Below, in pieces: positions 96 through 17,706 of a DNA stretch of 47,804 nt (positions are counted from its first letter, which is position 1; each line of letters starts with the position of its first letter). Below the pieces are notes generated by a model. The model did not search any database and was not told where the DNA came from. It saw only the letters and a list, made by a program, of their open reading frames with translations. Both the position numbers and the translations under genes were made by a program. The DNA is from a virus (lineage: Duplodnaviria > Heunggongvirae > Uroviricota > Caudoviricetes), in the IMG/VR virus record IMGVR_UViG_2541047728_000005. The stretch is one strand, 5' to 3'.

Positions 96-479
96 TGAGG
101 CTGTATATGGTTCGCCAGGTGGTGATGTTTCAAACCATTCTGTTATGTTTACCTCTCCACCCAAGCTATTTACTACATCTTCAACCGCTGCCCTTGTACC
201 CTTTATTCGCTTTGTTCGTATTATTGATTTAAAAACAGAACGCTTTAACGATACAGGCCAACTATCCCTCCATGTATCAGCATTCCATTGCCAAGCTAAA
301 TGATCGAGAACAACTGAGTCCAGGTTATCAACAACGCTATATATTTCTGTCTTATATATTAAATTGTTAATTGCTTGTAGTTCATCATCAATAGCTTTCG
401 ACATAGCTATCACGTTGGGATCGCTAGCTAAGTTAGGAGGTAAAACATCCAACAAGCTAACATTAAAGATATCAGCCAT
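1..479 (-). CDS. Tail protein I (P2 gpI / Mu gp48-like), 5' part; ORF crosses the circular junction and continues at 47607..47709 (193 aa total)
   Basis: Minus-strand ATG at 479..477 overlaps stop of upstream J-like gene (ATGGCTGA); translation MADIFNVSLLDVLPPN...NITEWFETSPPGEPY resembles P2 gpI; frame continues into window end without stop. Confidence 0.7.
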   Translation of the reverse strand, partial: MADIFNVSLLDVLPPNLASDPNVIAMSKAIDDELQAINNLIYKTEIYSVVDNLDSVVLDHLAWQWNADTWRDSWPVSLKRSVFKSIIRTKRIKGTRAAVEDVVNSLGGEVNITEWFETSPPGEPYTASIVASINSFDGAVPSKEMLEDTLRSIKSAKSA

Positions 480-1596
480 CCTCTAACCCCGCATACTGGC
501 AATTTATATTTCTCTCTCTGGCGACCTGTGTCTCTCCAACCACATTAAAAACAGGACTTGATATTTCTAATCTTTTAGCCCCAGCATTTTTTAAACGTTG
601 AATAATTTCATCTGGATTTATATCTCTTCCCATAACCGAACGTTGCCATTGTTTATACTCATCAATAGCTTTCTCAACCTCACTTTGAATTAAAGTTGTT
701 CTGTTTTTGTCCGATGAGTTAATCCAGTATTTAATTATTATATCGTATTCAATGCTCTCTGGTTTCTTAACAAGAACTTTATCTGTGAATGGTCGAATAT
801 TAGTTGCAGAGAGAACGCTATTTATCTGCTCTAATAGTTCATCAGAAGGTATATCTCCGTTCTCTAACAAAGAACGGATTTCTACAATTCCGGGCGATGG
901 TGTATATACATTCACATCTTTTATATTCTGATTGGCTGTTCTTGTCCAATATTTATAAGAATCCTCCGGCCCTGCTGTAGACAGTTTTTCCGGCGACAGT
1001 TTTATTCTTTCAGCATAATTATCATCTGACTCCGTATCAGCACCAGAATTAGATGTTGTTACATTCCTTACTCTGGAAACATACGGCAACGGAGTCACCA
1101 ACTCATTTATTTGCCCTGGTAAAAAGCCATTCCCAGATAAACCAGGTATAACAGCATATCCTGAGACTGTACCAACTGTTTTCCCAGCAGGTATTTCCAA
1201 CAAAATATCTGTTTGGAAAATAACACCATTTCCAGTTGAAACTTGAGTGCCAGCAGGTATTGTATATATCCCCGATAATTTTGTTGACAGATTAAACTCA
1301 AATGTAGTCAAGGCAGATTGAGCTTCCAGCCTAGGCGTATCCGTCAGATAGCCTATATGGTCGAGATATTCACCTTCACCATATGTAAGAAGGTTTTGTT
1401 TTGCAGAAAAATCGATAGCTTTTCTTTGCTGTATAATAATCTCACACAATGATAAGATGAATAATCTACGTGGATCAGCAGGTGCTAATGTTTCACCTGT
1501 TATACTCTCAAAAGCCCTGATTGAACGAGTTGTTATATCAGTCGGGTTAGAATCTGCGAAAGTAATATCTGGCAAACCACCACGCGGCAACGTCAT
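472..1596 (-). CDS. Baseplate protein J-like (P2 gpJ / Mu gp47 family)
   Basis: 374-aa ORF between W-like and I-like genes in conserved V-W-J-I-H-G order; translationally coupled to gene I. Confidence 0.65.
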   Translation of the reverse strand: MTLPRGGLPDITFADSNPTDITTRSIRAFESITGETLAPADPRRLFILSLCEIIIQQRKAIDFSAKQNLLTYGEGEYLDHIGYLTDTPRLEAQSALTTFEFNLSTKLSGIYTIPAGTQVSTGNGVIFQTDILLEIPAGKTVGTVSGYAVIPGLSGNGFLPGQINELVTPLPYVSRVRNVTTSNSGADTESDDNYAERIKLSPEKLSTAGPEDSYKYWTRTANQNIKDVNVYTPSPGIVEIRSLLENGDIPSDELLEQINSVLSATNIRPFTDKVLVKKPESIEYDIIIKYWINSSDKNRTTLIQSEVEKAIDEYKQWQRSVMGRDINPDEIIQRLKNAGAKRLEISSPVFNVVGETQVARERNINCQYAGLEDG

Positions 1597-1913
1597 TCTC
1601 TAACTCCTATCACAAGTTTTGGCCTAATAAAACCATCAGAAACGTCCGTTCTTTCAAAAGTAACAGAATGGATAATCGCTCTAGGCTCAAACTCACTAAT
1701 TTTTTGAATTATTTCTCGTGTTGCTGTAGCAATAAAAATTGGACTAGGGCTATCAACAAGACTTGAATTAATTCCTAATTTTCTGGCATATGGTACAGTG
1801 CCAATTTGAGTATTAATAATAGTAGAGACATTTTGCAAAACTTCTTCTACAACTGTTTTGGGCGACCAATCAATCGAGTAAGAAGGTGATGATATGGTAA
1901 ACGTATTATTCAT
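1593..1913 (-). CDS. Baseplate wedge protein, GPW/gp25-like
   Basis: 106-aa ORF, size and position upstream of J-like gene; overlapping stop/start with neighbours. Confidence 0.55.
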   Translation of the reverse strand: MNNTFTISSPSYSIDWSPKTVVEEVLQNVSTIINTQIGTVPYARKLGINSSLVDSPSPIFIATATREIIQKISEFEPRAIIHSVTFERTDVSDGFIRPKLVIGVRE

Positions 1914-2377
1914 AATAATTTACCTAACGCACTTCTAGTTTTTGACTCTATATTGCCAGCAATATCAACTAATGCTTCTTTCAGAGAGGTCTGTCCGACT
2001 TCCTGTAATTTAATGCCGACGATAATCACTCGTGGATTCCCAGTTGGACCGAAATAAGTCCATGATTCCTCTATATCTGTAATTATAAAATTACCAAAAT
2101 ACTGAATACCAATTACAACAGGATTTACTTCCTGAATTGATTGCATTGTCCTAAGTAATGAAAGCGCAGCCAATGGAACAATGCCAAGTGTTGTATCCAA
2201 CCGCATATTAAAACTAACTTCATCCAGATCTGGACCTATATCCTCCAGAACAGGTTTAAGCCCAATAACATCATGGCGCGCTACACGACGCTTTGACGTC
2301 CTTTTAAAATTGTTGAACGTATTCACCACTATTGATGAGGCAACAAAAGGCATTGTACCAAGCATACCCACAATCAT
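1910..2377 (-). CDS. Baseplate-associated hypothetical protein
   Basis: 155-aa ORF translationally coupled inside baseplate operon. Confidence 0.4.
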   Translation of the reverse strand: MIVGMLGTMPFVASSIVVNTFNNFKRTSKRRVARHDVIGLKPVLEDIGPDLDEVSFNMRLDTTLGIVPLAALSLLRTMQSIQEVNPVVIGIQYFGNFIITDIEESWTYFGPTGNPRVIIVGIKLQEVGQTSLKEALVDIAGNIESKTRSALGKLL

Positions 2378-2994
2378 GCCTGAGCCTCCGTTGTCGGAGC
2401 GTATTCCCCCTGAGCTGTGTGATGGTGGCCTTTAGATTTAATCCCATCAACATCTATATCACCACCAACAACCTTAACATTCCCAGAAATTGTAGCTGCA
2501 ACACCTCCAGCAGAAGATCCTTTCATTCCACCTTTGAAGGTTAGTAATCCTTCAACTGTAGCATTTCCGGTAATGATGGTTTCTGGAGCATCAATAGTTA
2601 CGGTTCCTGTAGCCTTAATGGTTACATCTCCGACAGCATCAACAAGGAGTAAATTAGATTCTCTGTCTATCTCAATACGAGTTCCGTTATTAAATCTAAT
2701 GACGCGTTTATTAACAGTATTAGATGGCGGCTTCTGTGTTTCATCATAAAAACTACCAAGAATAAAACCTTGTTGCGGCCCCGCGGGATGAAAGATACAC
2801 AAAACTTGCTCACCAATATCTGGCATCCAGTAATCAGCATTCTTATCTGTATTTTTCACAATAACTGATAACTTTGCCGAAGTGACGTTATCCTGATCAT
2901 CGAAAGTAACTCTTGCTGTAACATCACCATCATCAATATCAGAAACAACGCCAACTCTTATAGTCTGACGTAATAATGTTTCTAAATCATTCAT
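2374..2994 (-). CDS. Baseplate spike / assembly protein V-like
   Basis: 206-aa ORF with Gly/Thr/Val-rich beta-helix-like C-terminus (GDVTIKATGTVTIDAP...), position after D-like gene. Confidence 0.6.
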   Translation of the reverse strand: MNDLETLLRQTIRVGVVSDIDDGDVTARVTFDDQDNVTSAKLSVIVKNTDKNADYWMPDIGEQVLCIFHPAGPQQGFILGSFYDETQKPPSNTVNKRVIRFNNGTRIEIDRESNLLLVDAVGDVTIKATGTVTIDAPETIITGNATVEGLLTFKGGMKGSSAGGVAATISGNVKVVGGDIDVDGIKSKGHHHTAQGEYAPTTEAQA

Positions 2995-2996
2995 AA

Positions 2997-3998
2997 TTAA
3001 TACCCATTAATTACTCTTCGGACATCAATCGAGGTGGTATAACCACTAGTCCCAATTGAATGCACAGCTTTCGATATAAGATATTTTCCAGAAAATGAAC
3101 CGAATCCCTCCAGATTTATAGTTACACCAGCTACCAATCTGGTGTCTCCAACCAATACTAAAGATCCGGTATTTTGATATCTATTTTTAAGCCGCAAAGC
3201 AGCCTTTGCCTTACGTTTTGCTTCATCTAAATTAGCTACCAGTTTTCTTATCTTAAGATTCGACCCTTCTTCTACGGATGGATCTACCCAAGTATACGAA
3301 AGCGACTTTCTTTTTTTAGGTACGCGATATTTGCACGTGCAACTTTTATACAAATCTGTAGATTGTGTGCTAAAGCTATATCTGATTATCTCATCAATAC
3401 CTAACGTAAGCGTAGCGATAGGATCTTTTTGCTCAAACATCTCTTGAGCAAATATTATTAATTGGCTATCAGTGACCTTTAACGACAACCCTTCATCCTG
3501 GCAAAGTCGATGGAGAAATTTTAAATCGCTTTCCTCCATTTGATCTTCACGCGCATAATATGGATTACTATCACCATCAATAAGAAACAACAGTTCAAGG
3601 TTAGCTAATTTAGCTATAGAAGTTGCTATATCTTTAAGAGTTGTTTTTTCCCATGCATTACTTTTTAAATCACGTCTAATGCCTGATGAAACAGGAACAG
3701 AAACAGCAGTTACCTCAACCACAGAAGGTGGTCCAGAGCAAGTTATGCCATCTACCTGGAATTTCCCGCACTCAAGGACGATTTGATTTATAGGCTTAAA
3801 GCTCAAATCAATAAAATCACCCTTTTTAGGTGTCCAGTCTCCAGACCATTTCCCATCATCATTTTTTAATATAATAGAAATATCATCGACCTGACCATCT
3901 TCATTATCTGTATAAGACATTGACAAAACATCAGGTGACATATGAGCGGTAATATTTACATTCTGATATATAACATCAAAAAGCGTTTTACGTAACAC
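2997..3998 (-). CDS. Tail protein D-like (P2 gpD / Mu gpP late control D family)
   Basis: 333-aa ORF downstream of tape measure and X-like gene, as in Mu/P2 tail operons. Confidence 0.55.
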   Translation of the reverse strand: MLRKTLFDVIYQNVNITAHMSPDVLSMSYTDNEDGQVDDISIILKNDDGKWSGDWTPKKGDFIDLSFKPINQIVLECGKFQVDGITCSGPPSVVEVTAVSVPVSSGIRRDLKSNAWEKTTLKDIATSIAKLANLELLFLIDGDSNPYYAREDQMEESDLKFLHRLCQDEGLSLKVTDSQLIIFAQEMFEQKDPIATLTLGIDEIIRYSFSTQSTDLYKSCTCKYRVPKKRKSLSYTWVDPSVEEGSNLKIRKLVANLDEAKRKAKAALRLKNRYQNTGSLVLVGDTRLVAGVTINLEGFGSFSGKYLISKAVHSIGTSGYTTSIDVRRVINGY

Positions 3999-4206
3999 TA
4001 TTGCGTCTCCACGGAGGAAAATTGTTTACTGATATTGGCATAACCGGAGCATCAGGAACTTTAAGAATAATTCCCGCAGAAAAAAGCACCGTAAAGCGGT
4101 GCTCAGTATTAGCATCAATAAGAAGATAAGACAGGTACTCATTACCATACAACTTTAAAGCGATACTATCCCATGAGTCCCCTTGAACCGTTCTATAATC
4201 ATCCAA
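3988..4206 (-). CDS. Small tail protein X-like (LysM-like)
   Basis: 72-aa ORF directly after tape measure gene; MDDYRTVQGDSWDSIALKLYG resembles LysM-type tail protein X. Confidence 0.45.
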   Translation of the reverse strand: MDDYRTVQGDSWDSIALKLYGNEYLSYLLIDANTEHRFTVLFSAGIILKVPDAPVMPISVNNFPPWRRNSVT

Positions 4207-6996: not shown

Positions 6997-7179
6997 TTAA
7001 TCCTCATTAAACACGTCAATCCATGCGACGATTCGCCTCAACCGAAGCGAAAGCCAGTAGGATATAGGTGTTGATTGAGATGATTGAGATAGAGAACTCG
7101 CGGCCCTCATTATTTGCTTATCAATAGGTTTTTGCTCATCAAAACCTACGAGAGCAAAAAATTCTGTACCTTTTGACAA
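6997..7179 (-). CDS. Tail assembly chaperone frameshift extension (GT-like product via -1 frameshift)
   Basis: ORF in -1 frame overlapping 3' end of 7146..7427; slippery T_TTT_TTG on minus strand (plus 7155..7161). Confidence 0.45.
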   Translation of the reverse strand: MSKGTEFFALVGFDEQKPIDKQIMRAASSLSQSSQSTPISYWLSLRLRRIVAWIDVFNED

Positions 7180-7427
7180 ACTTTAACAAAGTCTTTCGCT
7201 GGTAATCCATTCAGATACTCTATTGGACGACCAATACAGCGAGCAGCCAAGGCTGCATGGACTTTATTATCAAGTGATGTTTGAACTGAAACATGCCCTT
7301 GAGATTGCAGTAAGTCCGATACCTCTAAAATATCACTGCCTTTTAGGTTGTCTAAATCAAGGTTGAGTTCAGTCACCGGCTCAAAGTCTTCAAAACGATA
7401 TTCTTTACTTAATTTAACGGTTTCCAT
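7146..7427 (-). CDS. Tail assembly chaperone (G-like), upstream frame
   Basis: 93-aa acidic ORF immediately upstream of tape measure gene; overlapped by -1 frame ORF. Confidence 0.6.
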   Translation of the reverse strand: METVKLSKEYRFEDFEPVTELNLDLDNLKGSDILEVSDLLQSQGHVSVQTSLDNKVHAALAARCIGRPIEYLNGLPAKDFVKVCQKVQNFLLS

Positions 7428-7436
7428 TTTGTCACC

Positions 7437-7958
7437 TTATAAACCTAAATCATCACGAACGCTTTTTAATATATCTTCACCATCAAAGATACAAATAAAG
7501 TTCAACTTATCAATTTCCAGGACTTCTTTTCCATCAATAAATAATTTGATATAGAGAACTTCAAATTCATTCTCTGAATCAGTAGCCTTTGCCACCTGTA
7601 GCGAACCTAAATCCAGTTTTTTAGGGTTTAGCTTCATTGAAGCCCGAATAGGAACCGTTTTATATTTTCCTGTTCCTGCATCATAAACCTGCTGGCTACC
7701 GCGAAAATCTACCTGATGCGATGAGGATAGAAATAATTTTGTACCAGCAGAGGTCAGAGTTCGCCATTTAAGAGAGACAGTCATTGGTTTGAAATGCCCC
7801 AGCGTTCCGCTCTCAAGCTCTCCAGCGATACCTGCACCACTAACAGTTTCTGTCATCATCTCAATTGATGGCAGCTTTGCGTCAGCAACACCGATAATAC
7901 GGTTTCCTTCACCGTATACTGTAAAGTTAATAAGTCTCTCAGGAATTTGATTGCTCAA
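7437..7958 (-). CDS. Tail tube protein
   Basis: 173-aa ORF between sheath and chaperone genes (Mu L-M order). Confidence 0.55.
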   Translation of the reverse strand: MSNQIPERLINFTVYGEGNRIIGVADAKLPSIEMMTETVSGAGIAGELESGTLGHFKPMTVSLKWRTLTSAGTKLFLSSSHQVDFRGSQQVYDAGTGKYKTVPIRASMKLNPKKLDLGSLQVAKATDSENEFEVLYIKLFIDGKEVLEIDKLNFICIFDGEDILKSVRDDLGL

Positions 7959-7974: not shown

Positions 7975-9438
7975 TTATTCAGAAAACAAGTTCAGCAGAT
8001 AATCAGGATTATATTCCATGACGAACTCTATATCTCTGGCAGGTGAGAATGGTGTCATTTTTACATGGAATTTAACAATCCCGTCCATCAATGACGTAAT
8101 CGTGTTTTCAGACTGATCAAAGGTAACAACACCACCTGCAATATCCTGATTACCAGTGAGGCCGTTAAGCCAAATATTCGCACTAGTAACAATCGATTCA
8201 ATTAATCGACGGTTTGCAGGATTGTCTATTTTTGACCAATGCGAAAGAATTAACGTATTACCCACCCAGTTAAACATACGTCGGCAAACACGAAATGCGT
8301 CTTTGGGGTCTGTAGATGTTGGATAAATAGCATTACGGTTTCCCCATGATTTCCAACCATCAAAATTAAGGCTTGTTACAATCCCCTGTCCATTTAAGTA
8401 GTTTGCCTGGCTAATGTTAAGCCATACCTCACTGCCATCTTTACGTACAGCACCGTCCATCTGTAGTTTTATATTTGACGGAGAACGTGATGGAATATCA
8501 CCATACTGACTATCCAGCAAGCATGTTGCTGCCGCTAAATGGGTTGAGTGATGGTAAATATTGTCACCAAGTTTCACCATCGGCCAGCACACTGTCTGGT
8601 TAGCTGCCATATGATTATTGTTCTGCTTCCATTCAGGAACAGCAGAATAATCACTGATAGTAGATTTATCAGTCGGCGCATCGGTGATAGCTTCTGCTTT
8701 GAACAATTCACTAATCAGCGCAGCTTTAGCCGCCATTAGCTGGCCAACTTCACTATCAGAACTAAATCCAGGCGCAATCACTTGTCCTGGAACTAGTTTG
8801 AAGCGGGGATAAACATCCGACAGTAACTCAAGCCCCGTATTCGCTTTAGTGTTGGAATCCACACCACCAATAATATCGTTTTTAGTTACAGCCCCGGGAT
8901 CAAGATGCGTATAACTAACCTTAAGAGTGGCGTCTTTTTCAGTAATTTTTCCTCCGCTAATAGCGGTAATGACCGTATAGCCATTATCATCCAGCGCCAG
9001 TACATAATCTGTATCAACCGTTAACCCTGGAGAATCACCATCTGCTTTTTTCACAACAACAGATTTATATAAGACACCATCGTTAGAGAGCGTACCTTTC
9101 CCGCCAGAAAGTTTTACTACCTCATCAGTTACGTCTTTCTTATGCTTTGCTGGATCAAGCACATTGATAAATACAACTGGCGCAACACCATATATTCCAA
9201 ATGCGACTTTAATTACTTCGCTTAAAGTATATTTCTCGAAGTTTGTGCTATATCCTATTTTAGATACGGCCTCTGCGTATGTATAAGCAATGATAGGTTT
9301 ATTTACCGCTGAGGCTGGATCTTCTAACTGATTAACAGGAGTTGTACCAAATGCGACAATCAACCCAGCACTAACTTGTACTGGAGGAGTTATAGATGTA
9401 GCCAGCTCAGATATATAAATACCGTGGCGATATCCCAT
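7975..9438 (-). CDS. Tail sheath protein
   Basis: 487-aa ORF, size and position typical of Mu/P2-type contractile sheath, upstream of tube. Confidence 0.65.
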   Translation of the reverse strand: MGYRHGIYISELATSITPPVQVSAGLIVAFGTTPVNQLEDPASAVNKPIIAYTYAEAVSKIGYSTNFEKYTLSEVIKVAFGIYGVAPVVFINVLDPAKHKKDVTDEVVKLSGGKGTLSNDGVLYKSVVVKKADGDSPGLTVDTDYVLALDDNGYTVITAISGGKITEKDATLKVSYTHLDPGAVTKNDIIGGVDSNTKANTGLELLSDVYPRFKLVPGQVIAPGFSSDSEVGQLMAAKAALISELFKAEAITDAPTDKSTISDYSAVPEWKQNNNHMAANQTVCWPMVKLGDNIYHHSTHLAAATCLLDSQYGDIPSRSPSNIKLQMDGAVRKDGSEVWLNISQANYLNGQGIVTSLNFDGWKSWGNRNAIYPTSTDPKDAFRVCRRMFNWVGNTLILSHWSKIDNPANRRLIESIVTSANIWLNGLTGNQDIAGGVVTFDQSENTITSLMDGIVKFHVKMTPFSPARDIEFVMEYNPDYLLNLFSE

Positions 9439-9728: not shown

Positions 9729-10214
9729 TTAGATAAACTCCTGAGACTGAATATTCTGAGGCTTTAATACTAGCCACGTTCCAGTTGCTTCCGTTATCCA
9801 ATATGGATATGGTTGATCATCAAACATTCGCCATCTGATATCACCCTGAAAGAGAAATTTCTCTTCAAGTAAAGGCTTCTCCTGAAAATGAAACATCATC
9901 CTTTCAAGAAGAGCCATTACCCATTCATATCCAGTATGGTCCTCACAAAAACCACCTAGAAGAAACTTAACCTTAACTTCATCCGTTTCAGGCTGCATTC
10001 CTCCTTCCGTGGGCCTGATAATCACATGAGGAAATTCTGGCGGTTTATCTGGAGATGGTTGTGATTTAGGAGGCAAGTACCCTTTAAATATTGTTGGAAC
10101 AAACAATTTAATATCGCTGTCTGTTTCATCATAAGGAGGCCCCTGCACTAATAAATCATGGAAAACCTCATGTTCCAACCGATTTTTTATTGCATCTATC
10201 AAAAGATTAATCAA
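9729..10214 (-). CDS. Hypothetical head-tail joining / tail completion protein
   Basis: 161-aa ORF in structural operon. Confidence 0.4.
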   Translation of the reverse strand: MINLLIDAIKNRLEHEVFHDLLVQGPPYDETDSDIKLFVPTIFKGYLPPKSQPSPDKPPEFPHVIIRPTEGGMQPETDEVKVKFLLGGFCEDHTGYEWVMALLERMMFHFQEKPLLEEKFLFQGDIRWRMFDDQPYPYWITEATGTWLVLKPQNIQSQEFI

Positions 10215-10555
10215 ATCGGCATTCCTCTGTTAGTATTAACAGTGAGAGTTATTTCCAATACACCAACATTATCTGATACTTCATCAACAATATAATTTTT
10301 ACCGTTGATTTTCATTGACTGATCTTTGACAGGGAGAACAGGAAAATCTTTTCTTGAAACAAATAATATTATTTGCCCCTGATTTATTCCCTCTGCAAAC
10401 TCAGCATATGAGCGTTTATTCCGCTCATGAATAAGGTCTGTATCAATAACGGCAAGGATATCCTTGCCGTCTATGTTATATGTATCGGCAAACTCTTTTT
10501 CATTGAGGAATATTGCAGAAATATCTTGCGCTATAACCTCTTTGAAGGAGTTCAT
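10211..10555 (-). CDS. Head-tail connector / head closure-like protein
   Basis: 114-aa ORF between capsid and tail genes. Confidence 0.4.
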   Translation of the reverse strand: MNSFKEVIAQDISAIFLNEKEFADTYNIDGKDILAVIDTDLIHERNKRSYAEFAEGINQGQIILFVSRKDFPVLPVKDQSMKINGKNYIVDEVSDNVGVLEITLTVNTNRGMPI

Positions 10556-10947
10556 TACTTCTTATTACCTTTTTTTTGCGTTGATTTTTTCGCATTACTG
10601 GTATCAGAAGTAGCTACAGATTCAGATGAATCATCAGCAACCATTTCCTCATTGCCGCCATCATCCTCAAACTCAACCTCGAATACACAGCTACCCGCCT
10701 CCGTTCGCGTAATCAACCCCGCGTCCACAGCATCATTAACAGCAGATGCGTATCCATGCTCAAAAGCTAACTTAGCAGCATCATAGCCCCCAGCCGATGC
10801 CAAATCACCATCCTCTTCGGTGGCAATAGCATGTCCTGACGCAATCAGTTCGGCAATTCTGGAGTTATCCATTAGCCCATTAAGCAAACGGCCCGCTTTT
10901 AGCGAGCCGTGGCTTATCGTATCAATGTTTTTAATCAGTCTGGCCAT
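10555..10947 (-). CDS. Hypothetical head protein (acidic, Ala/Asp-rich)
   Basis: 130-aa ORF immediately downstream of major capsid gene. Confidence 0.4.
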   Translation of the reverse strand: MARLIKNIDTISHGSLKAGRLLNGLMDNSRIAELIASGHAIATEEDGDLASAGGYDAAKLAFEHGYASAVNDAVDAGLITRTEAGSCVFEVEFEDDGGNEEMVADDSSESVATSDTSNAKKSTQKKGNKK

Positions 10948-11991
10948 TTAAACCACCTTAGCCACCAGATAGGCATCAGCCACACCAGGATTAGGCAGTG
11001 GAGATGACTTCATGGCAACATAACGGCCAGCCGGCTTACGAGTTACCCAAGTGTCTGGAACTCGTGGTGACTCAACAATCGTTAGAGTCTTTTCGGCGTC
11101 ATCTACAAGCTCTACAGCACCATACAGCATCGTTCCTCGACCAGGAGAGCCAAAGAGGATCTTATCTTCCGGTACTAATGGTTCAGGTTTTCCTGTTTTA
11201 TCATTGCGAATAAGTTCGTCGTAACCATAAAAATCGACACCTTCAAGATTGCCATAATGAGTTACGCCTTCTTCTAACTCTTTAGGCTCAATATACCCAA
11301 GCTCTTTTCGGCGATTATCAAGATATTTAGTTACTGCTTCATTTTTAACGAAGGCATCAACAACTTTTGCGCCCATTACGGCAACACGAGGTGTAAAACC
11401 TGAAGTTAGTGATACCCGACGTTTCCAGTTGCGAACATTGACTAACGGATCTGATTTTGCTGCACTCCATAAATCATCACCTGTCAGTTCAAGATATGGT
11501 TTATCTCCTTCCTCTTCAGGCCAAAAATAAACTGTGTCATCCACTCCTTCACCAACAATATCAACCTGCCCCGTAAACAAGACTTGTGCACACATCCATT
11601 CTTCACGGCGGTTAACCATTTCATCAAGCTCAAGCAAATCTTTACCTAATTGCTCGGCGGCTCGTTCTGCTGGCGATTTTGCGTTGTAAATATTCTCACC
11701 CGGAAGCCTGTTTAAAAGCAGCTCGGCTGTTGTTACCAAATCAGGTGCAACAAGTGGTGGCTCCAGAGTTCTCGTTACAAAGCCGCGTCGCTCAACGGTT
11801 TTTGAGCCAAAACCTTTACCAACAAACGGAGCCATAGTACGGCCACCGCGAACAAAATCCAGATCAACTTTCTTTGTATTAAAGGTCTGAACACCAGGAA
11901 AAAAGGTACGAAGAAGAAAACGACGAGCCTTGAAATTCTGAATAACAGGCTCAAGCATCGTACGTCGTTCAAAAATATCAATATTCGGCAT
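10948..11991 (-). CDS. Major capsid protein, lambda gpE family
   Basis: 347 aa; N-terminal ...RRFLLRTFFPGVQTFNTKKVDLDF and C-terminal ...PDTWVTRKPAGRY...NPGVADAYLVAKVV resemble lambda gpE. Confidence 0.85.
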   Translation of the reverse strand: MPNIDIFERRTMLEPVIQNFKARRFLLRTFFPGVQTFNTKKVDLDFVRGGRTMAPFVGKGFGSKTVERRGFVTRTLEPPLVAPDLVTTAELLLNRLPGENIYNAKSPAERAAEQLGKDLLELDEMVNRREEWMCAQVLFTGQVDIVGEGVDDTVYFWPEEEGDKPYLELTGDDLWSAAKSDPLVNVRNWKRRVSLTSGFTPRVAVMGAKVVDAFVKNEAVTKYLDNRRKELGYIEPKELEEGVTHYGNLEGVDFYGYDELIRNDKTGKPEPLVPEDKILFGSPGRGTMLYGAVELVDDAEKTLTIVESPRVPDTWVTRKPAGRYVAMKSSPLPNPGVADAYLVAKVV

Positions 11992-12011: not shown

Positions 12012-12395
12012 TTATGCAGATGGATTTTGTTGTGCGGTATTAAGGAATATTCCAACCTTCCGGCAAGCCAGATATACATCGGCAACTTTTGCTGATTCAG
12101 GAAGGATAACCGCATGTGCATTGAACATTCCGGTCAGCCATGCTGTTCCGACTTGCGCTGAATCAGTCGCATCAATATTGTGTTGAGCGATACAATACGG
12201 TTCTTTTGCCTCCCCTTCACCAGAGAGATTTATTGGCGCCACAGTGACAACATTTGTTGTCTGATCAATACTGACAAAAGCAAGTAACTCACCCCGTTTT
12301 ACTTTACCGCTGGCAAGTTTAATACTTGCTGGAATTGCTGGCATACCACCAGAAATAATCAGATTATCTGGTTCAAATGAAAAAGACTCTCGCAT
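12012..12395 (-). CDS. Head decoration protein (gpD-like position)
   Basis: 127-aa ORF directly upstream of major capsid gene. Confidence 0.5.
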   Translation of the reverse strand: MRESFSFEPDNLIISGGMPAIPASIKLASGKVKRGELLAFVSIDQTTNVVTVAPINLSGEGEAKEPYCIAQHNIDATDSAQVGTAWLTGMFNAHAVILPESAKVADVYLACRKVGIFLNTAQQNPSA

Positions 12396-12404
12396 AAACT
12401 CACC

Positions 12405-13493
12405 TTAATTTTTATCGCGGTTTTTAAATACTGACCCAATAACATTTTTTACTGCTTCAGCCTGTTTGTTGCCGTTGTTTTCTGGTTGATTAACATCAAC
12501 TGAATCATTCACCTCACTTGCGTCTTCTTGCCGTTGATTAAGAAAGTTTTTGTTACGCGCTCGCTCTGCATTCATAATTTCCAAAGCAAGTTCAGCCGCA
12601 GAAACTCCTGTTTTGAATTTTGCATTCTTAACCAGGTCGTCATGACCAGGAATCACGCTATTCTCGATTGTTTCAATGCGCTCGCGTTCTGATTTAACGC
12701 CCTCGTCTTTACCAGCATTAAAAACCTGATTGTATAATTCTGGATATTTATTTTTTAATTCATCAAGAGTCACAATATCGTCCTCATTTTGTTCATTTGA
12801 TTCAGTAGATAACTCATTTTTATTTTGCGGCAACTTTGCGAGTGAATCAGGTAATTTTGAAAACCTTGATGCTTCAAAAGTTATTCCATTAAGCGAAAGC
12901 ATCCCTTCCTTTATAGAAGCGGATAAGCGTATTGGTTTTTCAACTTCGTCAGCAAATCCAAGCTCTACAGCCTCTTCTGCATTTAGCCATGTTTCCTGAT
13001 CCATTAGTTCAATTAATTTATCCTCAGAAAGCCCTGTTTTCTCCTTATATGCAGATAAAATACTATTGCGTATCTTATCCATCATCTCAGCAATATCACG
13101 CAATTCATCCGCATCGCCAGCAGCAAATATCCACGGATTATGGATCATCATCATAGCATTAGATGGGATAATAATTTTATCACCCGCCATTGCAATAATA
13201 GTTGCAGCCGATGCAGCAATCCCGTCGATATAAACCGTAATATTCGCCTTATGACGCTTTAATGATGAAAGAATAGCTTGAGCAGTAAAAACAGAACCAC
13301 CATAACTATTAATTTTTACGTTGATAGTATTTGATGAAATATCCTTTAATTTATTAACTATGTCAGAAGAAGAAACCTCATCAAATTCACCAATATACCC
13401 GTAAATTAAAAGTTCAGCCGGAGAGTCATCTTCACCCGTGCTATTTTTTATTTCCCACCAATTAGGCATCATCAGTCTCCATATTTTGTTCAT
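12405..13493 (-). CDS. Prohead protease (ClpP-like serine protease domain) with C-terminal scaffold-like acidic region
   Basis: Motif INSYGGSVFTAQAILSSLK...YIDGIAASAATIIAMAGDKII typical of ClpP/S49 family; between portal and decoration genes. Confidence 0.8.
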   Translation of the reverse strand: MNKIWRLMMPNWWEIKNSTGEDDSPAELLIYGYIGEFDEVSSSDIVNKLKDISSNTINVKINSYGGSVFTAQAILSSLKRHKANITVYIDGIAASAATIIAMAGDKIIIPSNAMMMIHNPWIFAAGDADELRDIAEMMDKIRNSILSAYKEKTGLSEDKLIELMDQETWLNAEEAVELGFADEVEKPIRLSASIKEGMLSLNGITFEASRFSKLPDSLAKLPQNKNELSTESNEQNEDDIVTLDELKNKYPELYNQVFNAGKDEGVKSERERIETIENSVIPGHDDLVKNAKFKTGVSAAELALEIMNAERARNKNFLNQRQEDASEVNDSVDVNQPENNGNKQAEAVKNVIGSVFKNRDKN

Positions 13494-15036
13494 TTACCTC
13501 AGAAACAGGAGGTGTAATAAGCCCCAACTCACGGCGAGCATTCTCTTCTCTGCCACAGATTTGTGCGGTTTCTTCCCAGTTAAGACCTGACATTTCAGCC
13601 GCTTCTTTTTCACGGGTAGAGAATGTTTCCTCAACACGCAGTTTTGCAGCTTTGACTTCTTTAAGGGGATCTAATTGGCCTTGTGATGGGCCATACCATT
13701 GAGCGCCACTCCATGCAGCGCGATATTCAGGCCCATAAAAAAAACCAGGGGCAATAACACGACCTTTAGCAACGGCTTCGGCCAACCATTCCTCATAGAT
13801 CGGTTGGCAAAATGACTGAACCATCCAGTCACGTCGCATACGGAACATTTTCCAGGCTTCAAGTAATGCGGCCCTGCTTGCGCTATAACTTGCTGTAAAA
13901 TGCTTTACCAAGAGTTCGTAAGGGAGTTCTAAAGCAGCCCCAATTTGACGGCATATGGCGACAACAAAACCATCAAATGCCGTATTTGGTCGCCCGGGAT
14001 TTGCTGTATCTATCGACTCACCTTCACCCAAACTTACTATGGAGCCATTCCCCATTTCTTGGGTGTTATTATCATGGTTATCGATCTGCTCGTACTGAGG
14101 GATACCCGATTCACCGACTGGCCCATCAGGAGCGTCTGTTTTAATAAAGACAGTAAACATCCCTGACACAACCGCAGCAACCAATTCAGCATCGGTGTAT
14201 CGTCCTAACTGCTTCAATGCTTCAATTACAGGAGCAAGGACAGGAACGCCACGGCGTTGCCCAGGCCTTTCAAAATCCTGCATGACATGCAGAATATTTC
14301 TTCTTCCTGTTTTACTCCCATATGCGGGAATACGTTCCCACTTGCGGGTTACAAAACCAGAAGTCCCGGCTGGGTGATGTTTTGCAACCCAGTACGCCAC
14401 AGGCTCGCTAAATTCACCAACCTCTACGCCACCGTAAAGATTTGGTATAAAACGATCCTCTGGATTGCAAACACGATCACCTTCAATTAAATAGACGCAC
14501 AAATCATATATAACACCCTTACGCTTAATAACTGGTAGCGCAGCAAATATATCGCCAGATGTTAACGCAGATATTTGGACCAATGATTGCAATTGTCCAA
14601 AAGTACACATTCTTGATGCATCACAATTTGGAGAATCAGCCCATAATCTAAACTCACGCTCAACATGCTTTTCCCATGCTCGCGCTTCTTCCTGCGTCAT
14701 CCCCAAGAAATCGGCATCAATGTTCGCATTTAGTTTTAAACCGGAACCAACAACGTTTGTCCTGATAGTTTTTATTGCGCCAACAGATAGCGGGTTTCCC
14801 ATGAAGAGATCACGAGAACGCTCACGCAATTTATCTATATTTTTAACAATATCATCATCAGGAGAACCAGCTTTACTAAACCAACCCCTTAATGATTTTT
14901 TATGAGTGCTTGCACCATGACGTGAATATCCAAGGTTATTAATACCTTCAAGTGCTTCTAACCGTTTTCTTGCCAAAGCTCGATTTAATGCCCTCTGAGG
15001 TGAAAACGGCGCAATAACTCGATCAAGAATATTCAT
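13462..15036 (-). CDS. Portal protein (lambda gpB family)
   Basis: 524-aa ORF between gpW-like and protease genes, lambda-like order A-W-B-C. Confidence 0.8.
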   Translation of the reverse strand: MNILDRVIAPFSPQRALNRALARKRLEALEGINNLGYSRHGASTHKKSLRGWFSKAGSPDDDIVKNIDKLRERSRDLFMGNPLSVGAIKTIRTNVVGSGLKLNANIDADFLGMTQEEARAWEKHVEREFRLWADSPNCDASRMCTFGQLQSLVQISALTSGDIFAALPVIKRKGVIYDLCVYLIEGDRVCNPEDRFIPNLYGGVEVGEFSEPVAYWVAKHHPAGTSGFVTRKWERIPAYGSKTGRRNILHVMQDFERPGQRRGVPVLAPVIEALKQLGRYTDAELVAAVVSGMFTVFIKTDAPDGPVGESGIPQYEQIDNHDNNTQEMGNGSIVSLGEGESIDTANPGRPNTAFDGFVVAICRQIGAALELPYELLVKHFTASYSASRAALLEAWKMFRMRRDWMVQSFCQPIYEEWLAEAVAKGRVIAPGFFYGPEYRAAWSGAQWYGPSQGQLDPLKEVKAAKLRVEETFSTREKEAAEMSGLNWEETAQICGREENARRELGLITPPVSEVNEQNMETDDA

Positions 15037-15272
15037 AAATCTCTTATCACCACTCGTTTAATTCGTGGGCCTCGGCGTACACCTGCTGATAATCTTTCTA
15101 CTTCATTACGCCAGTAATCCATCTCTTTTCTGACTTCTGATAAATCCGCACGAGTTAACTGCCGCGTACCAAATTTATATGACTGACCGCCAATAGCAAT
15201 AGCGCGATATGCTTCCCGCCAGACAGATAACATCTCTCTGGCTTCAGTCAGAGAAAATGCTTCATTGTTCAT
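15033..15272 (-). CDS. Head-tail joining protein gpW-like
   Basis: 79-aa ORF between terminase large subunit and portal. Confidence 0.5.
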   Translation of the reverse strand: MNNEAFSLTEAREMLSVWREAYRAIAIGGQSYKFGTRQLTRADLSEVRKEMDYWRNEVERLSAGVRRGPRIKRVVIRDL

Positions 15273-15283
15273 TTATATTTCCT

Positions 15284-17140
15284 CTATATGGTTACGCCTT
15301 TACTTATAACTCTACGGCGTCTTCTACGTATACCTGACGAGTTCTGCACATACACATTACCTCGCATTTCCTGTTCGGCAAGCCAGTTAAAATTAGGGTT
15401 CAGAATTTCCATCGCGGCAGTTGCATAGTTACGGCAATCAAGAGGCTCGTTACGCTCGTAGACTTTCACCCACTTTTCTTTTGTCTGCCCATTTTTATAT
15501 TCAAATATTTTTTTCTCTGATAATAATCCTTTAAAGTATTCGGTATCATATCCTCTGTCAGAATCTAATGGGAAATGCATATAACCAGGACCAGGATCAT
15601 GTAGTTTAATTCTTGCCATGATGGTCCCTTTACCATCATCAACCCCCAAATTAAACAACATAGCACCCACACGGTTATTATTACTTGGCTTTCCTATAAA
15701 TGGTAAACCTACCCCACCACGCCCCCTGATAGAGTATATTCGCCTTGATTCTCTCGGCTTAGTAAAGCGATATACCTCTGTCGTAAAATGCCCACCAGAG
15801 TCAATACAAACGGAAGAAATCTGTAATTTTCGACCGTCACGGAATGACCAGCTACGGAGTAAGTATTCATCAAGTTGTTTCCAGACAACATCTTGTGCGG
15901 GATCACCTGGGAATATTTTATATTCTATCCCCCATGACTCCTTACCTTTTCCCCAACCGACCAATTCACAAACTAAATACGTGTCCTGTACGTCAACACC
16001 AGCACTTAACAATAAAACATCATCTGGTAAAAACTCTTCAAACCTTATTCTGCGTTGCAACAAGTATTCAGGATCGATATCGTCTTTAGCATCCTCTTTC
16101 CATGGCTCACCCAGCTTAAGGTTAATAAACTCCATTAATCCATTTTTATCGCGGTTTCTGGTTGCTTCCGTAAATTCTTCAACCAGCTCTGACAATGCAA
16201 CCCACGGGGAGTAAAGACTGTTAATATGAAAACCAACAATACCTTTAACTCCAGTATGTTCAGCTATCCATACCCCCTTCGCCAACCAATCAACGTCTGG
16301 TTTACCAGATCCGCGCATAATCCCGCCGCACTCACAGCACTCATATCTGGCCGTTTCCGGTAACGCCTCACCTGAATCGCTCTTATCCCATCTGACTTGC
16401 GACCATTTCATCACCTGCATGGTGCCACAACATGGGCAAGGAACATGGTAGTAACGCTGATCGGAGAGCTTAAACCACTTGTGGATTTTGCTTGTTTCCT
16501 CCAAAACAGGAGTAGAAACAAAAACTTTCTTACGATTATGAAAGTTGGTAGTACGCTGAATACCTAGTTTTAGTGGGTCGCCCTCCTGCGTCACACCGTA
16601 ACGATCAATCTCATCAGCTAACAGTATTCGAATTGGCCTGGATGCAAGACCTGCTGGGGAATTAGCACCAACAAGTGCTATATATCCACCAGCGTAATGC
16701 TTCATACGTATAGTCGTGCTGGACTTTTTGGCTGCACCGCGCCCCTCTTTCCCTTCATGCAGCTTGTGTTTCAAACCAGGGGAATATTTGAACGTCGGAT
16801 CAATACGCTCTTTTGAAAAAGCCTCAGCCGCCTCTACCGTTGGATAAATCATCAACTGAGGAGATGGCTCCTGATCTGCAAAGTAACCCATAACATTTAG
16901 CTGTAATTCGGATTTACCAATTTGCGAGCTACATTGCATCACTACTGTTTCTGTATCAGCGTCACCAATAACATCCATTGGTTCACGCAAATATGGCACT
17001 CGGCTTGTACGCCACGGCCCTGGCTCTGGAGACGTTCCCGGCGCTACATGACGATACTTATCAGCCCATTCGGAAACAGTTAGCCGTGATTTAGGGCGAA
17101 GCGCACGGAAAAAAGCGGTGCTCCATACTGTTTCGCCCAT
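15284..17140 (-). CDS. Terminase large subunit (lambda gpA-like)
   Basis: 618-aa ORF; position upstream of gpW/portal; size typical of GpA-type terminase. Confidence 0.8.
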   Translation of the reverse strand: MGETVWSTAFFRALRPKSRLTVSEWADKYRHVAPGTSPEPGPWRTSRVPYLREPMDVIGDADTETVVMQCSSQIGKSELQLNVMGYFADQEPSPQLMIYPTVEAAEAFSKERIDPTFKYSPGLKHKLHEGKEGRGAAKKSSTTIRMKHYAGGYIALVGANSPAGLASRPIRILLADEIDRYGVTQEGDPLKLGIQRTTNFHNRKKVFVSTPVLEETSKIHKWFKLSDQRYYHVPCPCCGTMQVMKWSQVRWDKSDSGEALPETARYECCECGGIMRGSGKPDVDWLAKGVWIAEHTGVKGIVGFHINSLYSPWVALSELVEEFTEATRNRDKNGLMEFINLKLGEPWKEDAKDDIDPEYLLQRRIRFEEFLPDDVLLLSAGVDVQDTYLVCELVGWGKGKESWGIEYKIFPGDPAQDVVWKQLDEYLLRSWSFRDGRKLQISSVCIDSGGHFTTEVYRFTKPRESRRIYSIRGRGGVGLPFIGKPSNNNRVGAMLFNLGVDDGKGTIMARIKLHDPGPGYMHFPLDSDRGYDTEYFKGLLSEKKIFEYKNGQTKEKWVKVYERNEPLDCRNYATAAMEILNPNFNWLAEQEMRGNVYVQNSSGIRRRRRRVISKGVTI

Positions 17141-17145
17141 GAGGT

Positions 17146-17706
17146 TTATTCTTCCTGCTTAATAAATCGGGATTCCTGGAGCGCCTGAAGCGCAAAATTA
17201 ATCTCGTCTTCAATAATGCGCTCGATCTCCCTGGCTGTTTTGCCTTCACAACGGGGAGCTGCTCTTGGAGCAATACTAAATAAGCGGCTACGCAATTCAT
17301 TAGCTGCCAGAAATGCATCATCCCTGACCGCATCTTTAGCGATGAGAGAGCCTTCCTTTTCTTCAAATTCAAGGCGTTTCAGCTTTGCCTGATAAATTTT
17401 TTCTGCGGTCTTAGCCTTGTTGAATTGCACCGCAACACCGGAAGTACCACCAGCTAATCCGGCATCATCAGCGGGTAACTCTGGTTGTTCCGAAGATATC
17501 CCATGCCCTCTTTTTCCATTTTCAGCAGATACCTCACGACCAACCTGTCGGCTCGCTTCATAAGCCGCACTGGCTTTATCAAAATCCAGCTTGCCGCTTT
17601 TCAGCACTGGAATGCGACCGGAACGACAGAGCTTCGTAACCATTGCCGGAGAAATACCTTTCCGGCGGGCAAACTCTGACTTACTGACGATGGCCATTAC
17701 TTGCAA
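17146..17706 (-). CDS. Terminase small subunit (HTH DNA-binding)
   Basis: 186-aa ORF immediately upstream of TerL; N-terminal HTH-like ...ARRKGISPAMVTKLCRSGRIP... Confidence 0.6.
   Translation of the reverse strand: MQVMAIVSKSEFARRKGISPAMVTKLCRSGRIPVLKSGKLDFDKASAAYEASRQVGREVSAENGKRGHGISSEQPELPADDAGLAGGTSGVAVQFNKAKTAEKIYQAKLKRLEFEEKEGSLIAKDAVRDDAFLAANELRSRLFSIAPRAAPRCEGKTAREIERIIEDEINFALQALQESRFIKQEE

Follow-up and report, generated by a model that had tools for sequence, protein, structure and literature searches.

Genes of the virion block

The analysed window, 47,804 nucleotides in length, begins and ends with the same 95 nucleotides (positions 47710-47804 repeat positions 1-95), and thus it represents a circular contig of 47,709 bp. 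A contiguous virion operon was found on the minus strand, from position 17706 down to 472. As the contig is circular, the remaining virion genes, encoding gpI, the tail fibre and Tfa, lie across the junction and at 44113-47804. The original prediction had correctly identified a P2 gpH-like fibre and Tfa, but they do not lie within the 472-17706 region to which it assigned them. The genes and the matches that identify them are listed in Table 1.

Table 1. Genes of the virion block, in the order of the operon
Gene product	Position	Strand	Identification
ParB_N-domain protein, 196 aa	17697..18287	-	PF02195 E=3.8e-8; directly upstream of TerS
Small terminase subunit, TerS	17146..17706	-	PHROG 57 'terminase small subunit' E=7e-42
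Large terminase, TerL, lambda gpA family	15284..17140	-	PF05876 (GpA_ATPase) E=7e-76; PF20454 (GpA_nuclease) E=1e-84
Head-tail adaptor, 79 aa, lambda gpW position	15033..15272	-	PF19645 DUF6148 E=7e-16; PHROG 118 'head-tail adaptor' E=7e-29
Portal, lambda family	13462..15036	-	PF05136 (Phage_portal_2) E=7e-101; PDB chain 'Portal protein B' 8k38 E=3e-41
Prohead protease, ClpP/S14 type	12405..13493	-	PF00574 (CLP_protease) E=1e-31, residues 41-185
Head decoration protein	12012..12395	-	PHROG 49 E=8e-25
Major capsid protein, MCP, gpE family	10948..11991	-	PF03864 (Phage_cap_E) E=1.5e-55; PDB 7vi9 'Major capsid protein' (341 aa) E=6e-17
130-aa protein, lambda FI position, acidic C-terminal half	10555..10947	-	PHROG 5541, function unknown
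Three neck/tail-completion proteins: 114 aa (FII/Hc1-like), 161 aa (virion structural protein), 96 aa	9438..10555	-	PHROG 2551 and 82; PHROG 2581; PHROG 4089
Tail sheath	7975..9438	-	PHROG 23 E=4e-95; R-pyocin sheath PA0622 E=5e-15
Tail tube, FII family	7437..7958	-	PF04985 E=3.5e-44
Tail assembly chaperone pair	6997..7427	-	E-like ORF 7146-7427 (93 aa) and E' extension; PF10109 E=1.5e-5; PHROG 3140 E=9e-43
Tape measure protein, 930 aa	4199..6991	-	PF10145 E=1e-20
gpX-like small baseplate/hub protein	3988..4206	-	PF05489 21.1 bits, under cut-off 22
gpD-like baseplate hub	2997..3998	-	PF05954 E=2.7e-9; 28% identity to P2 D
gpV-like central spike	2374..2994	-	PF04717 and PF18715, E=3e-7 each; 26% identity to P2 V
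gpU-family tail protein	1910..2377	-	PF06995 E=2e-22
gpW/gp25-like baseplate wedge protein	1593..1913	-	PF04965 22.7 bits, under cut-off 27.2
gpJ-like baseplate wedge protein	472..1596	-	PF04865 E=9e-54; pyocin baseplate PA0618 E=6e-16
gpI, 193 aa, crossing the circular junction	5' part 479->1, then 47709->47607	-	PF09684 E=4e-27 on the joined translation
gpI, 3' part	47607..47804 (47710-47804 repeat 1-95)	-	terminal 95-nt identity
Tail fibre, 948 aa, chimera	44730..47576	-	PF03406, PF07484, PF03335
Tail fibre assembly protein, Tfa	44113..44730	-	PF02413 E=1e-39

The packaging and head genes follow the lambda order (TerS, TerL/gpA, W, portal, ClpP-like protease, decoration protein, gpE-like capsid protein), as originally predicted and borne out by the Pfam and PHROG matches. 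The conserved first gene of the virion block encodes the ParB_N-domain protein, with 59% identity to the product of the ParB-like gene preceding TerS in Vibrio phage X29, and 79% identity to the protein of a sister clade (plasmid 3 of Salmonella Weltevreden and about 25 IMG/VR contigs of 45-50 kb, hereafter the Salmonella sister). TerS has no Nu1 match in Pfam and is 42% identical to TerS of X29. TerL is 28% identical to lambda A. The prohead protease scores 24.3 bits against the S49 family, under the cut-off of 24.9, and has a C-terminal extension of about 170 aa. Because of its position and the C/Nu3 arrangement of lambda, this extension may serve as a scaffold. The decoration protein scores 19.7 bits against the Pfam family HDPD (cut-off 29.1). 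X29, Lily, KLER1-1 and Taranis lack a homologue of the 130-aa protein, which is 48% identical to that of the Salmonella sister and is specific to the enterobacterial clade.

The contractile tail, originally described as Mu/P2-type, is of the P2/R-pyocin type. Eight tail proteins match P2, whereas the resemblance to Mu is weak, with gpJ alone detectable (29% identity to gp47 over 40% of the length; identity to P2 J is 31%). The sheath has no match in Pfam and is 28% identical to P2 FI over 29% of its length; the tube is 28% identical to P2 FII. All members of the originally listed baseplate set D/V/W/J/I are present, but gpU and gpX had been omitted. The gpX-like protein is 25% identical to P2 X and 45-49% identical to its homologues in X29, Lily and KLER1-1; for the gpW/gp25-like protein the identity to homologues in the same phages is 33-39%. 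Tfa matches both P2 G and Mu U at 47-48% identity, with about 30% of its length aligned. The three neck genes have homologues at equivalent positions in X29, Lily and KLER1-1.

A slip site T_TTT_TTG is located at positions 7161-7155, four codons ahead of the stop codon of the 93-aa chaperone ORF, and the -1 frame is open as far as 6997, which would yield a fusion of about 143 aa. Judging by these two features, the originally predicted chaperone frameshift appears to be real. The TTTTTTG heptamer likewise occurs at the annotated frameshift site of P2, and close to the chaperone end in X29, Lily, KLER1-1 and the Salmonella sister.

Virion assembly

By analogy with lambda and P2, the gpA-type terminase and the small subunit would package DNA into the gpE-type capsid, probably by cos packaging. 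The capsid would be built on the lambda-family portal, matured by the candidate ClpP-type protease-scaffold fusion and stabilised by the gpD-like decoration protein. The adaptor and the three neck proteins may couple the filled head to the contractile tail. The tail would assemble on the baseplate (X, the D hub, the V spike, U, W, J and I), around the tape measure held by the E/E' chaperone pair, with E' probably produced by the -1 frameshift at TTTTTTG. The tube and sheath would polymerise after the baseplate/tape-measure stage, and the fibres, folded with the help of Tfa, are expected to determine the host range.

The element is a known phage-plasmid

The module is 100% identical at the nucleotide level to that of the E. 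coli plasmid pECO-b75 over 17.2 kb. It matches 62 plasmid records, every one typed as non-mobilizable, and is present in 72 of 5,426 complete E. coli genomes, where 94 of 95 places are plasmid-borne. The deposited phages vB_EcoM-613R2/473R2 and Yersinia phages vB_YpM_39/41/44 are 98.6-99.8% identical to the module. The element encodes an IncFII-family RepA and ParA; no integrase was found on it. The region is the entire block of head, packaging and contractile-tail genes of an E. coli phage-plasmid that has been sequenced before, and as such is ordinary and already known. Most of the matching records are annotated as plasmids only.

The window lacks a Neck1/gpZ-like gene that X29, Lily, KLER1-1 and Taranis possess. 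Together with the plasmid-only annotation, this might point to a defective remnant or a tailocin-like particle cluster on a plasmid, with no working phage virion module. We consider this highly improbable, as every ORF for head, packaging, neck, tail and fibre is intact. The same neck gene is absent from the Yersinia phages vB_YpM_39/41/44, which have the same gene set and were deposited as isolates (host Y. pestis EV76). The module is 98.6-100% conserved in dozens of plasmids, and in the sister clade the protein identity is 64-90% for every gene except a small one of unknown function; no disrupted genes were seen. Electron micrographs have been published for the Eco_473 lysate, which may contain other myoviruses, so that they include no unambiguous image of this element (bioRxiv 10.1101/2022.06.29.498070). 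In the relative XM1, a contractile tail has been observed by TEM (PMC11432961).

Shared descent of the head and tail genes

Descent was analysed by BLAST identities. Searches by tblastn with MCP and with the sheath return the same phages in nearly identical ranking, and head and tail have their three closest relatives in common, in the same rank order and with matching divergence. In the Salmonella/Citrobacter sister plasmids the identities are 88% for TerL, 86% for the portal and 84% for MCP, with 84% for the sheath, 90% for the tube, 85% for D and 78% for J. In a third clade they are 77, 72 and 72% (TerL, portal, MCP) and 64, 62 and 61% (sheath, tube, D), and in Vibrio phage X29, in the same order, 63, 66 and 47% and 53, 58 and 42%.

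Gene by gene, collinear homologues from TerL to gpI were found in X29, Lily, KLER1-1 and Taranis; among these, TerS is matched in X29 only. The TerS-to-gpI order is conserved in phages of Vibrio, Pararheinheimera, Paenibacillus and Faecalibacterium. All 40 distant loci with all six marker genes, from several bacterial phyla, are syntenic, and of the 57 distant loci that extend 6 kb or more beyond MCP on its downstream side, 48 carry both sheath and tube. Taranis, Lagaffe, Epona and Toutatis have been assigned to the Virfam class 'Myoviridae type 1, cluster 6' (PMC5883640). These comparisons suggest that the head and tail genes have been together since before the split of the enterobacterial plasmids, X29-like vibriophages and Bacillota prophages.

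Among the distant loci, the similarity of the head to the window is only weakly correlated with that of the tail (Spearman 0.38, p=0.017). Outliers occur on either side: in L052, L051, L049 and L055 the head is close and the tail is distant, and in KLER1-1, L061, L050 and L056 the tail is close and the head is distant. Thus it seems that head or tail blocks were exchanged between sublineages at some depth.

The original prediction interpreted the virion genes as two modules from different sources, a lambda-like head and packaging module recently joined to a Mu/P2-like tail from a more AT-rich source, with the GC difference as the scar. Indeed, the head Pfam families were first defined in lambda and the tail ones in P2; lambda has the same head families joined to a non-contractile tail, and P2 has the same tail families joined to a different head. 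However, homology searches, originally proposed as a check, place head and tail in one coherent phage lineage, the outcome that the prediction itself had set against a mosaic origin. Identities of 27-28% to lambda and 25-31% to P2 are far too low for recent acquisition from either. As the lambda-style head and the P2-style tail have been co-inherited for very long, they were not stitched together recently from two sources. Thus the original description of the genes is partly confirmed, and the two-source interpretation is not; given the shared relatives at three depths and the synteny, together with the composition described below, a recent splice is very unlikely and was rejected. The element is very probably a temperate myovirus maintained as a plasmid, a phage-plasmid of about 47.7 kb, whose virion block is one co-inherited unit of an old and widespread lineage with no recent splice of two phage types.

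Base composition

The tail genes are indeed more AT-rich than the head genes, as originally noted, but only slightly so: GC is 0.399 in the tail and 0.435 in the head, a difference of 3.6 points (Mann-Whitney test over genes, p=0.002). The largest difference, 0.062, is at the first codon position (0.490 in the tail, 0.552 in the head), whereas the GC3 difference of 0.033 (0.308 and 0.341) is not significant (p=0.12). The protease gene, within the head block, has GC of 0.367 and is as AT-rich as the tail genes. The head GC1 excess is found in all four phage relatives, and the head > tail > neck gradient recurs in the sister clades; in the sister clade with the same offset, GC3 is 0.477 in the head and 0.448 in the tail. 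The lower tail GC is thus a property of the whole lineage, mostly at codon positions determined by the amino acids. Relative to the Salmonella sister, GC3 has shifted by -0.141 in the head and -0.133 in the tail (p=0.79), and therefore the two have one common compositional history.

The main compositional step, sharp except for the graded 18844-24144 end, separates the whole late block from the plasmid and early genes: the virion genes have a GC3 of about 0.32, against 0.483 for the remaining 57 ORFs (p=3e-11), a far larger step than that between tail and head. One possibility is that the whole late block, about 19.5 kb from the ParB gene to the first 200 or so fibre codons, entered the E. coli plasmid backbone by homologous module replacement, the donor being a more AT-rich phage-plasmid of the same family that has yet to be sampled. 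In that case the mosaic joint would separate the late block from the backbone, not head from tail. This explanation is compatible with the virion block being a co-inherited unit, and adds to it. We regard it as tentative, at somewhat less than an even chance. The GC3 shift relative to the Salmonella sister is about -0.14 in the virion genes and +0.006 in the plasmid and early genes at 30569-43119 (p=1e-5). The intergenic region 18288-18652 is very AT-rich (GC 0.29), with GC of 0.51 after it, and at the other end GC jumps within the fibre gene at about codon 200. On the other hand, protein identity to the sister differs little between the late block (64-90%) and the backbone (59-95%), and the genes at 18844-24144 are shifted intermediately (-0.05 to -0.14), so that this boundary is graded rather than sharp. 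Among 5.8 billion proteins, no relative from an AT-rich host exceeds 87% MCP identity; the named matches above 80% are from Citrobacter, E. coli, Salmonella, Klebsiella aerogenes and Symbiopectobacterium. A region-specific mutational bias could also produce the same step.

A recent recombination joint does lie inside the fibre gene. Its N-terminal 200 or so codons share the AT richness of the remaining virion block, with GC3 of 0.29 in the first 100-codon bin, 0.13 in the second and 0.38-0.55 thereafter. Codons 236-718, approximately (window positions 45421-46869), are 92-93% identical at the nucleotide level to gene H of P2-like phages of the genus Peduovirus.

The virion genes

The original prediction read the virion module as a mosaic in which a lambda-type head had been joined to a Mu/P2-type tail from a different, AT-richer source. 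The description was largely right, whereas the two-source interpretation is supported by neither homology nor composition. All genes listed for the module are present, on the minus strand. However, gpI, the fibre gene and the Tfa gene, which had been included in the interval 472-17706, lie outside it, and the list of tail genes, correct in those it named, lacked gpU and gpX. Since the window ends in the same 95 nt with which it begins, it represents a circular assembly (47,709 bp) whose opening point falls within the gpI gene. The sheath gave no Pfam match at E<=0.01, and its identity came from PHROG and PDB searches.

Positions and supporting matches of the virion genes and other features of the window
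Feature	Position	Strand	Matches and remarks
Identical window ends	1-95, 47710-47804		
Virion interval	472-17706	-	
TerS		-	PHROG 57, E=7e-42
TerL, gpA family ATPase and nuclease		-	PF05876 E=7e-76; PF20454 E=1e-84; 28% to lambda A
Adaptor in gpW position		-	DUF6148 / PHROG 118
Portal, lambda family		-	PF05136 E=7e-101; PDB 'Portal protein B' E=3e-41
Protease		-	ClpP/S14 type, 110 bits
Decoration protein		-	PHROG 49 'head decoration' E=8e-25; Pfam HDPD 19.7 bits, under the 29.1 cut-off
Capsid, gpE family		-	PF03864 E=1.5e-55; 341-aa PDB major capsid chain E=6e-17
130-aa gene directly after the capsid gene	10555-10947	-	
Expected Neck1 position, junction of 114-aa and 161-aa neck genes	within 9729-10555		
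Sheath, after three neck genes		-	PHROG 23 E=4e-95; pyocin sheath PA0622 E=5e-15
Tube, chaperone, tape measure, X, D, V, U, W, then J, I		-	Pfam/PHROG matches; X and W just below Pfam cut-offs
Slip heptamer T_TTT_TTG	7161-7155	-	-1 frame open as far as 6997
gpI	479->1, then 47709->47607	-	spans the circular junction
Fibre	44730-47576	-	
Fibre segment similar to P2-like gene H (codons ~236-718)	45421-46869	-	
Tfa	44113-44730	-	
Hexapeptide-repeat acetyltransferase	43586-44149	+	convergent with Tfa
Segment replaced in vB_YpM_39	43332-46783		
IncFII-family RepA	42139-43119		E=1e-43
RelE/HigB-type toxin-antitoxin pair	40030-40682		
ParA	34353-35021		
HTH repressor	33094-33750		
tRNA-Met (CAT)	24453-24528	-	between lysis and methylase genes
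Three ParB_N-domain proteins	17697-21576		upstream of TerS
AT-rich intergenic stretch	18288-18652		GC 0.29

The frameshifted chaperone of the original prediction is borne out at the level of a putative slip site and an open frame: the heptamer lies four codons ahead of the stop of a 93-aa ORF, and shifting into the -1 frame would give a predicted product of about 143 aa. The same TTTTTTG occurs at the annotated E/E' site of P2 and near the chaperone end in X29, Lily and KLER1-1, three of the more distant phages with a homologous virion block, as well as in the Salmonella sister of the element.

In X29, Lily, KLER1-1 and Taranis, the counterparts of the 114-aa and 161-aa neck genes flank a Neck1/gpZ-like gene (~185-200 aa). 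Neck1 of X29 has no tblastn match anywhere in the window, and the gene is missing in the Salmonella sister too. The 130-aa gene following the capsid gene is unique to the clade.

By analogy with the lambda and P2 pathways, the terminase would move DNA into a decorated gpE-type capsid matured by a ClpP-type protease-scaffold. The adaptor and neck proteins would then dock a P2-type contractile tail, presumably built on an X-D-V-U-W-J-I baseplate around a tape measure bound by E/E', and fibres with Tfa would set the host range.

Probable joint inheritance of head and tail genes

The question of two sources was examined at four depths: tblastn against phages, annotated genomes, IMG/VR and protein searches, and a one-genome-per-species scan. 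When 50,697 phage records were searched with the capsid and with the sheath, the same phages were retrieved in nearly identical ranking (the X29 group, the XM1 group, Saumur, Lily, EalM-137, HFM1, and Fusobacterium and Faecalibacterium phages). In the annotations of X29, Lily, KLER1-1 and Taranis, the same 20-plus genes follow one another in identical order from TerS to gpI. Identity of the window to X29 is 63% for TerL, 66% for portal and 47% for MCP on the head side, and 53% for sheath, 58% for tube, 42% for D and 45% for J on the tail side. The corresponding values for Lily are 41, 55 and 40%, and 43, 46, 37 and 44%.

At shorter distances, the IMG/VR scan yielded a sister clade of 45-50 kb contigs, Salmonella and Citrobacter relatives that include plasmid 3 of Salmonella enterica Weltevreden (TerL 88%, portal 86%, MCP 84%; sheath 84%, tube 90%, D 85%, J 78%), and a third clade (TerL 77%, portal 72%, MCP 72%; sheath 64%, tube 62%, D 61%). 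A search of 5.8 billion proteins added further Citrobacter, Klebsiella aerogenes and Symbiopectobacterium members at 82-87%; in a Citrobacter contig the divergence of head and tail is equally balanced. The one-genome-per-species scan produced 67 loci. Of the scan loci and the four phage genomes, 57 extend for 6 kb or more downstream of the capsid gene; both sheath and tube were found in 48 of these, and all loci with the six markers are syntenic (40/40).

The same relatives, matched divergence and synteny place the head and tail genes in one coherent lineage, and not in two different sources. Judging from these sequence comparisons, the architecture appears to be that of an old self-standing lineage, extending from Enterobacterales and Vibrio to Bacillota. 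Among the distant loci, the similarities of head and tail to the window are weakly correlated (Spearman 0.38, p=0.017), and some loci depart from the trend either way: four loci (L052, L051, L049, L055) have heads near those of the window and much more distant tails, and four others (L005, L061, L050, L056) show the reverse, with gene order unchanged. This suggests that homologous head or tail blocks were swapped between sublineages in deep time; none of these swaps lies between the window and the three clades nearest to it.

In the sister clade the virion genes follow the order of the window at 64-90% protein identity, except for the small gene after the capsid gene (48%), and the set of neck genes is the same. 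Vibrio phages X29, phi 2, Rostov 7 and vB_VpaM_XM1 share the ParB/TerS-to-gpI synteny, TTTTTTG included, with X29 proteins at 24-66% identity; however, the X29-type phages contain the Neck1/gpZ-like gene, lack the 130-aa gene, and differ in their non-structural genes. More distant kin with this gene order are Lilyvirus, Taranisvirus and related Bacillota prophages; they too lack the 130-aa gene. The Vibrio members have been proposed as a new family, 'Weiviridae', and the tail of XM1 is contractile by TEM (PMC11432961). Faecalibacterium members were assigned to the Virfam head-neck-tail class 'Myoviridae type 1, cluster 6' (PMC5883640). The head-neck-tail architecture is of an already recognised type, and carries little weight as a discovery.

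Upstream of TerS there are three ParB_N-domain proteins, of 196 aa, 459 aa (fused to a methyltransferase domain) and 207 aa. This arrangement is kept in the Salmonella and Citrobacter relatives, and X29 has one ParB-like gene at the same place.

Comparison with lambda, P2, R-type pyocins and Mu

Direct similarity to the model phages is low. Only TerL (28%) and portal (27%) are detected by tblastn in lambda, and eight tail proteins, at 25-31%, in P2. Hence 'lambda head and P2 tail' holds as a label for protein families, but not as a junction made in this genome; the names tell where the families were first named, not that recombination occurred.

The order of lambda genes Nu1-A-W-B-C/Nu3-D-E matches TerS-TerL-adaptor-portal-protease/scaffold-decoration-capsid of the window, and for TerL, portal and capsid the Pfam family is shared with lambda. 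Three other components differ. The lambda protease is of the S49 type, whereas that of the window is ClpP/S14 (its S49 score, 24.3, is under the cut-off of 24.9); the adaptor is DUF6148 rather than the gpW family; and the window TerS has no Pfam match to the Nu1 family. The lambda tail is non-contractile, whereas the tail genes of the window are of the contractile type.

The tail contains the P2-family set: sheath, tube, E/E' with the identical heptamer, tape measure, X, D, V, U, W, J, I, H and G. The R-type pyocin sheath PA0622 and baseplate PA0618 also match window proteins, at about 1e-15. However, sheath, tube, E/E', T, X, D, V, U, W, J, I, H and G form one contiguous block, whereas in P2 V-W-J-I-H-G and FI-FII-E-T-U-D are separate and X is in the head operon. 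P2-type head genes Q, P, O, N, M and L are absent, and the head proteins of the window have no tblastn match in P2.

The tail resembles that of Mu in being a single unbroken block from sheath to fibres. However, the window has no gp43-type DNA-circularisation protein, and the head and transposition genes of Mu are unrelated to those of the window. A Mu-type tail, as originally proposed, was rejected: of the Mu tail proteins L, M and gp41-48, only gp47 (gpJ-like) is detectable, with 29% identity across 40% of the length (E=1.5e-4).

Composition of the late block

The tail genes are indeed AT-richer than the head genes in total GC (0.399 versus 0.435, p=0.002), but the difference is not significant at GC3 (0.308 versus 0.341, p=0.12), and it does not serve as a sign of two sources. 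GC1 is 0.552 in head and 0.490 in tail genes, and is higher in heads than in tails in 4/4 phage relatives. The neck genes are lowest (GC 0.360, GC3 0.297). The gradient head > tail > neck is repeated at GC3 in sister clades (0.477/0.448/0.398 in locus L082, 0.534/0.514/0.390 in L098).

AT-richness extends over the whole late block, that is, the head, packaging, neck and contractile-tail genes from the ParB gene down to the fibre start (in the compositional comparison, about 18650 down to 1, plus 46900-47709). Its GC3 is about 0.32, compared to 0.483 in the other 57 ORFs of the window (p=3e-11) and about 0.45-0.48 in the late block of the sister. Gene by gene, GC3 is below that of the Salmonella sister by 0.141 in head and 0.133 in tail genes (p=0.79); this equal shift points to one compositional history for both. 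The plasmid and early genes (30569-43119) differ from the Salmonella sister by +0.006 (virion versus backbone p=1e-5), and genes at 18844-24144 show an intermediate shift.

We tentatively, and with some doubt, ascribe the AT shift of the E. coli clade either to replacement of the entire ~19.5 kb block from an unsampled AT-rich branch of the same phage-plasmid family or to a mutational bias confined to the late region, the latter being the more unusual explanation. As to an AT-rich donor, apart from Citrobacter, E. coli, Salmonella, Klebsiella aerogenes and Symbiopectobacterium no source among the 5.8 billion proteins gave an MCP identity above 87%, and the GTDB scan gave distant loci only, at most 44% identical.

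Recombination joints

The fibre gene is a chimera: GC3 is 0.13-0.29 over the first ~200 codons and 0.38-0.55 in the later bins, and the segment of codons ~236-718 has 92-93% nucleotide identity to gene H of P2-like Peduoviruses. Recombination with P2-like coliphages has exchanged the part of the fibre that binds the receptor, with direct consequences for host range. Yersinia phage vB_YpM_39 is collinear with the window at 97-99% except for one segment, where it has a different fibre end, other Tfa genes and a hin invertase, and lacks the acetyltransferase. In the sister the fibre cassette is invertible, the tape measure is shorter (817 versus 930 aa) and several early genes are replaced.

The acetyltransferase gene is AT-rich (GC3 0.30) and is annotated in vB_EcoM-613R2 as a serine acetyltransferase. 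Since it is absent from both vB_YpM_39 and the Salmonella sister, it may be a lysogenic-conversion moron.

Recombination also affects gene-sized patches of the head, and possibly the whole late block. In an E. coli contig (L146, JBIQYC010000031.1, 9598-11428) identity falls to 92% for the decoration protein and to 87% for both MCP and the 130-aa protein, against 97-100% in the rest of the block; this looks like a gene-sized homologous replacement within the head genes. Another locus, L081, shows similar local divergence.

The AT-rich intergenic stretch parts the ParB-TerS block from DNA of GC 0.51. In X29 the genome end maps just upstream of the ParB homologue, and by this analogy the stretch is a candidate cos or late-promoter region. 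A promoter and terminator scan (17600-18900) gave no excess of sites over shuffled sequence, and nothing interpretable as cos was seen when the stretch was read by eye.

A circular phage-plasmid

The virion interval is 100% identical to the E. coli plasmid pECO-b75 (NZ_CP009861.1), 99.8% to Escherichia phages vB_EcoM-613R2/473R2, and 98.6-98.8% to Yersinia phages vB_YpM_39/41/44. About 60 plasmids of 47-49 kb resemble pECO-b75, the virion block being 98.6-100% identical at the nucleotide level across all 17.2 kb. Many GenBank entries, plasmids as well as phage isolates, already contain the sequence. The alternative of a tailocin or defective element was rejected, as the virion ORFs are present and near-identical phage isolates have been deposited.

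The element is carried by 72 of the 5,426 complete E. coli genomes (~1.3%), on a plasmid, typically of 47-49 kb, at 94 of 95 places; the PLSDB matches were all typed as non-mobilizable (62/62 plasmids). RepA and ParA, together with the plasmid occurrence and the lack of an integrase among the window ORFs scanned, make it a phage-plasmid: it is extrachromosomal and circular, with complete virion genes and genes of replication and partition. The window also codes, beyond the virion block, for an ORF6N/Rha regulator, a GH108 endolysin and an MT-A70 methylase.

The genome plan is the same in plasmid 3 of Salmonella Weltevreden (NZ_LN890526.1) and in the Citrobacter and Klebsiella aerogenes relatives: ParB, methyltransferase, TerS to gpI, fibres, RepA, toxin-antitoxin, ParA, repressor and lysis genes. 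In contrast, the X29-type phages and their more distant kin are integrating or lytic and have no RepA/ParA backbone.

Membership in the pSLy3 group was rejected, as pSLy3 belongs to the SSU5 supergroup (PMC7969092). Published work on UTAK-22 / pO111 likewise had no bearing on this element. Literature searches found no family name for the phage-plasmid and no paper on vB_YpM_39 or KLER1-1; the sole text mentioning vB_EcoM-613R2/473R2 reports a ParB gene and does not call them plasmids. The family is one of poorly characterised phage-plasmids. The tRNA-Met gene of the window is annotated in vB_YpM_39 as well.
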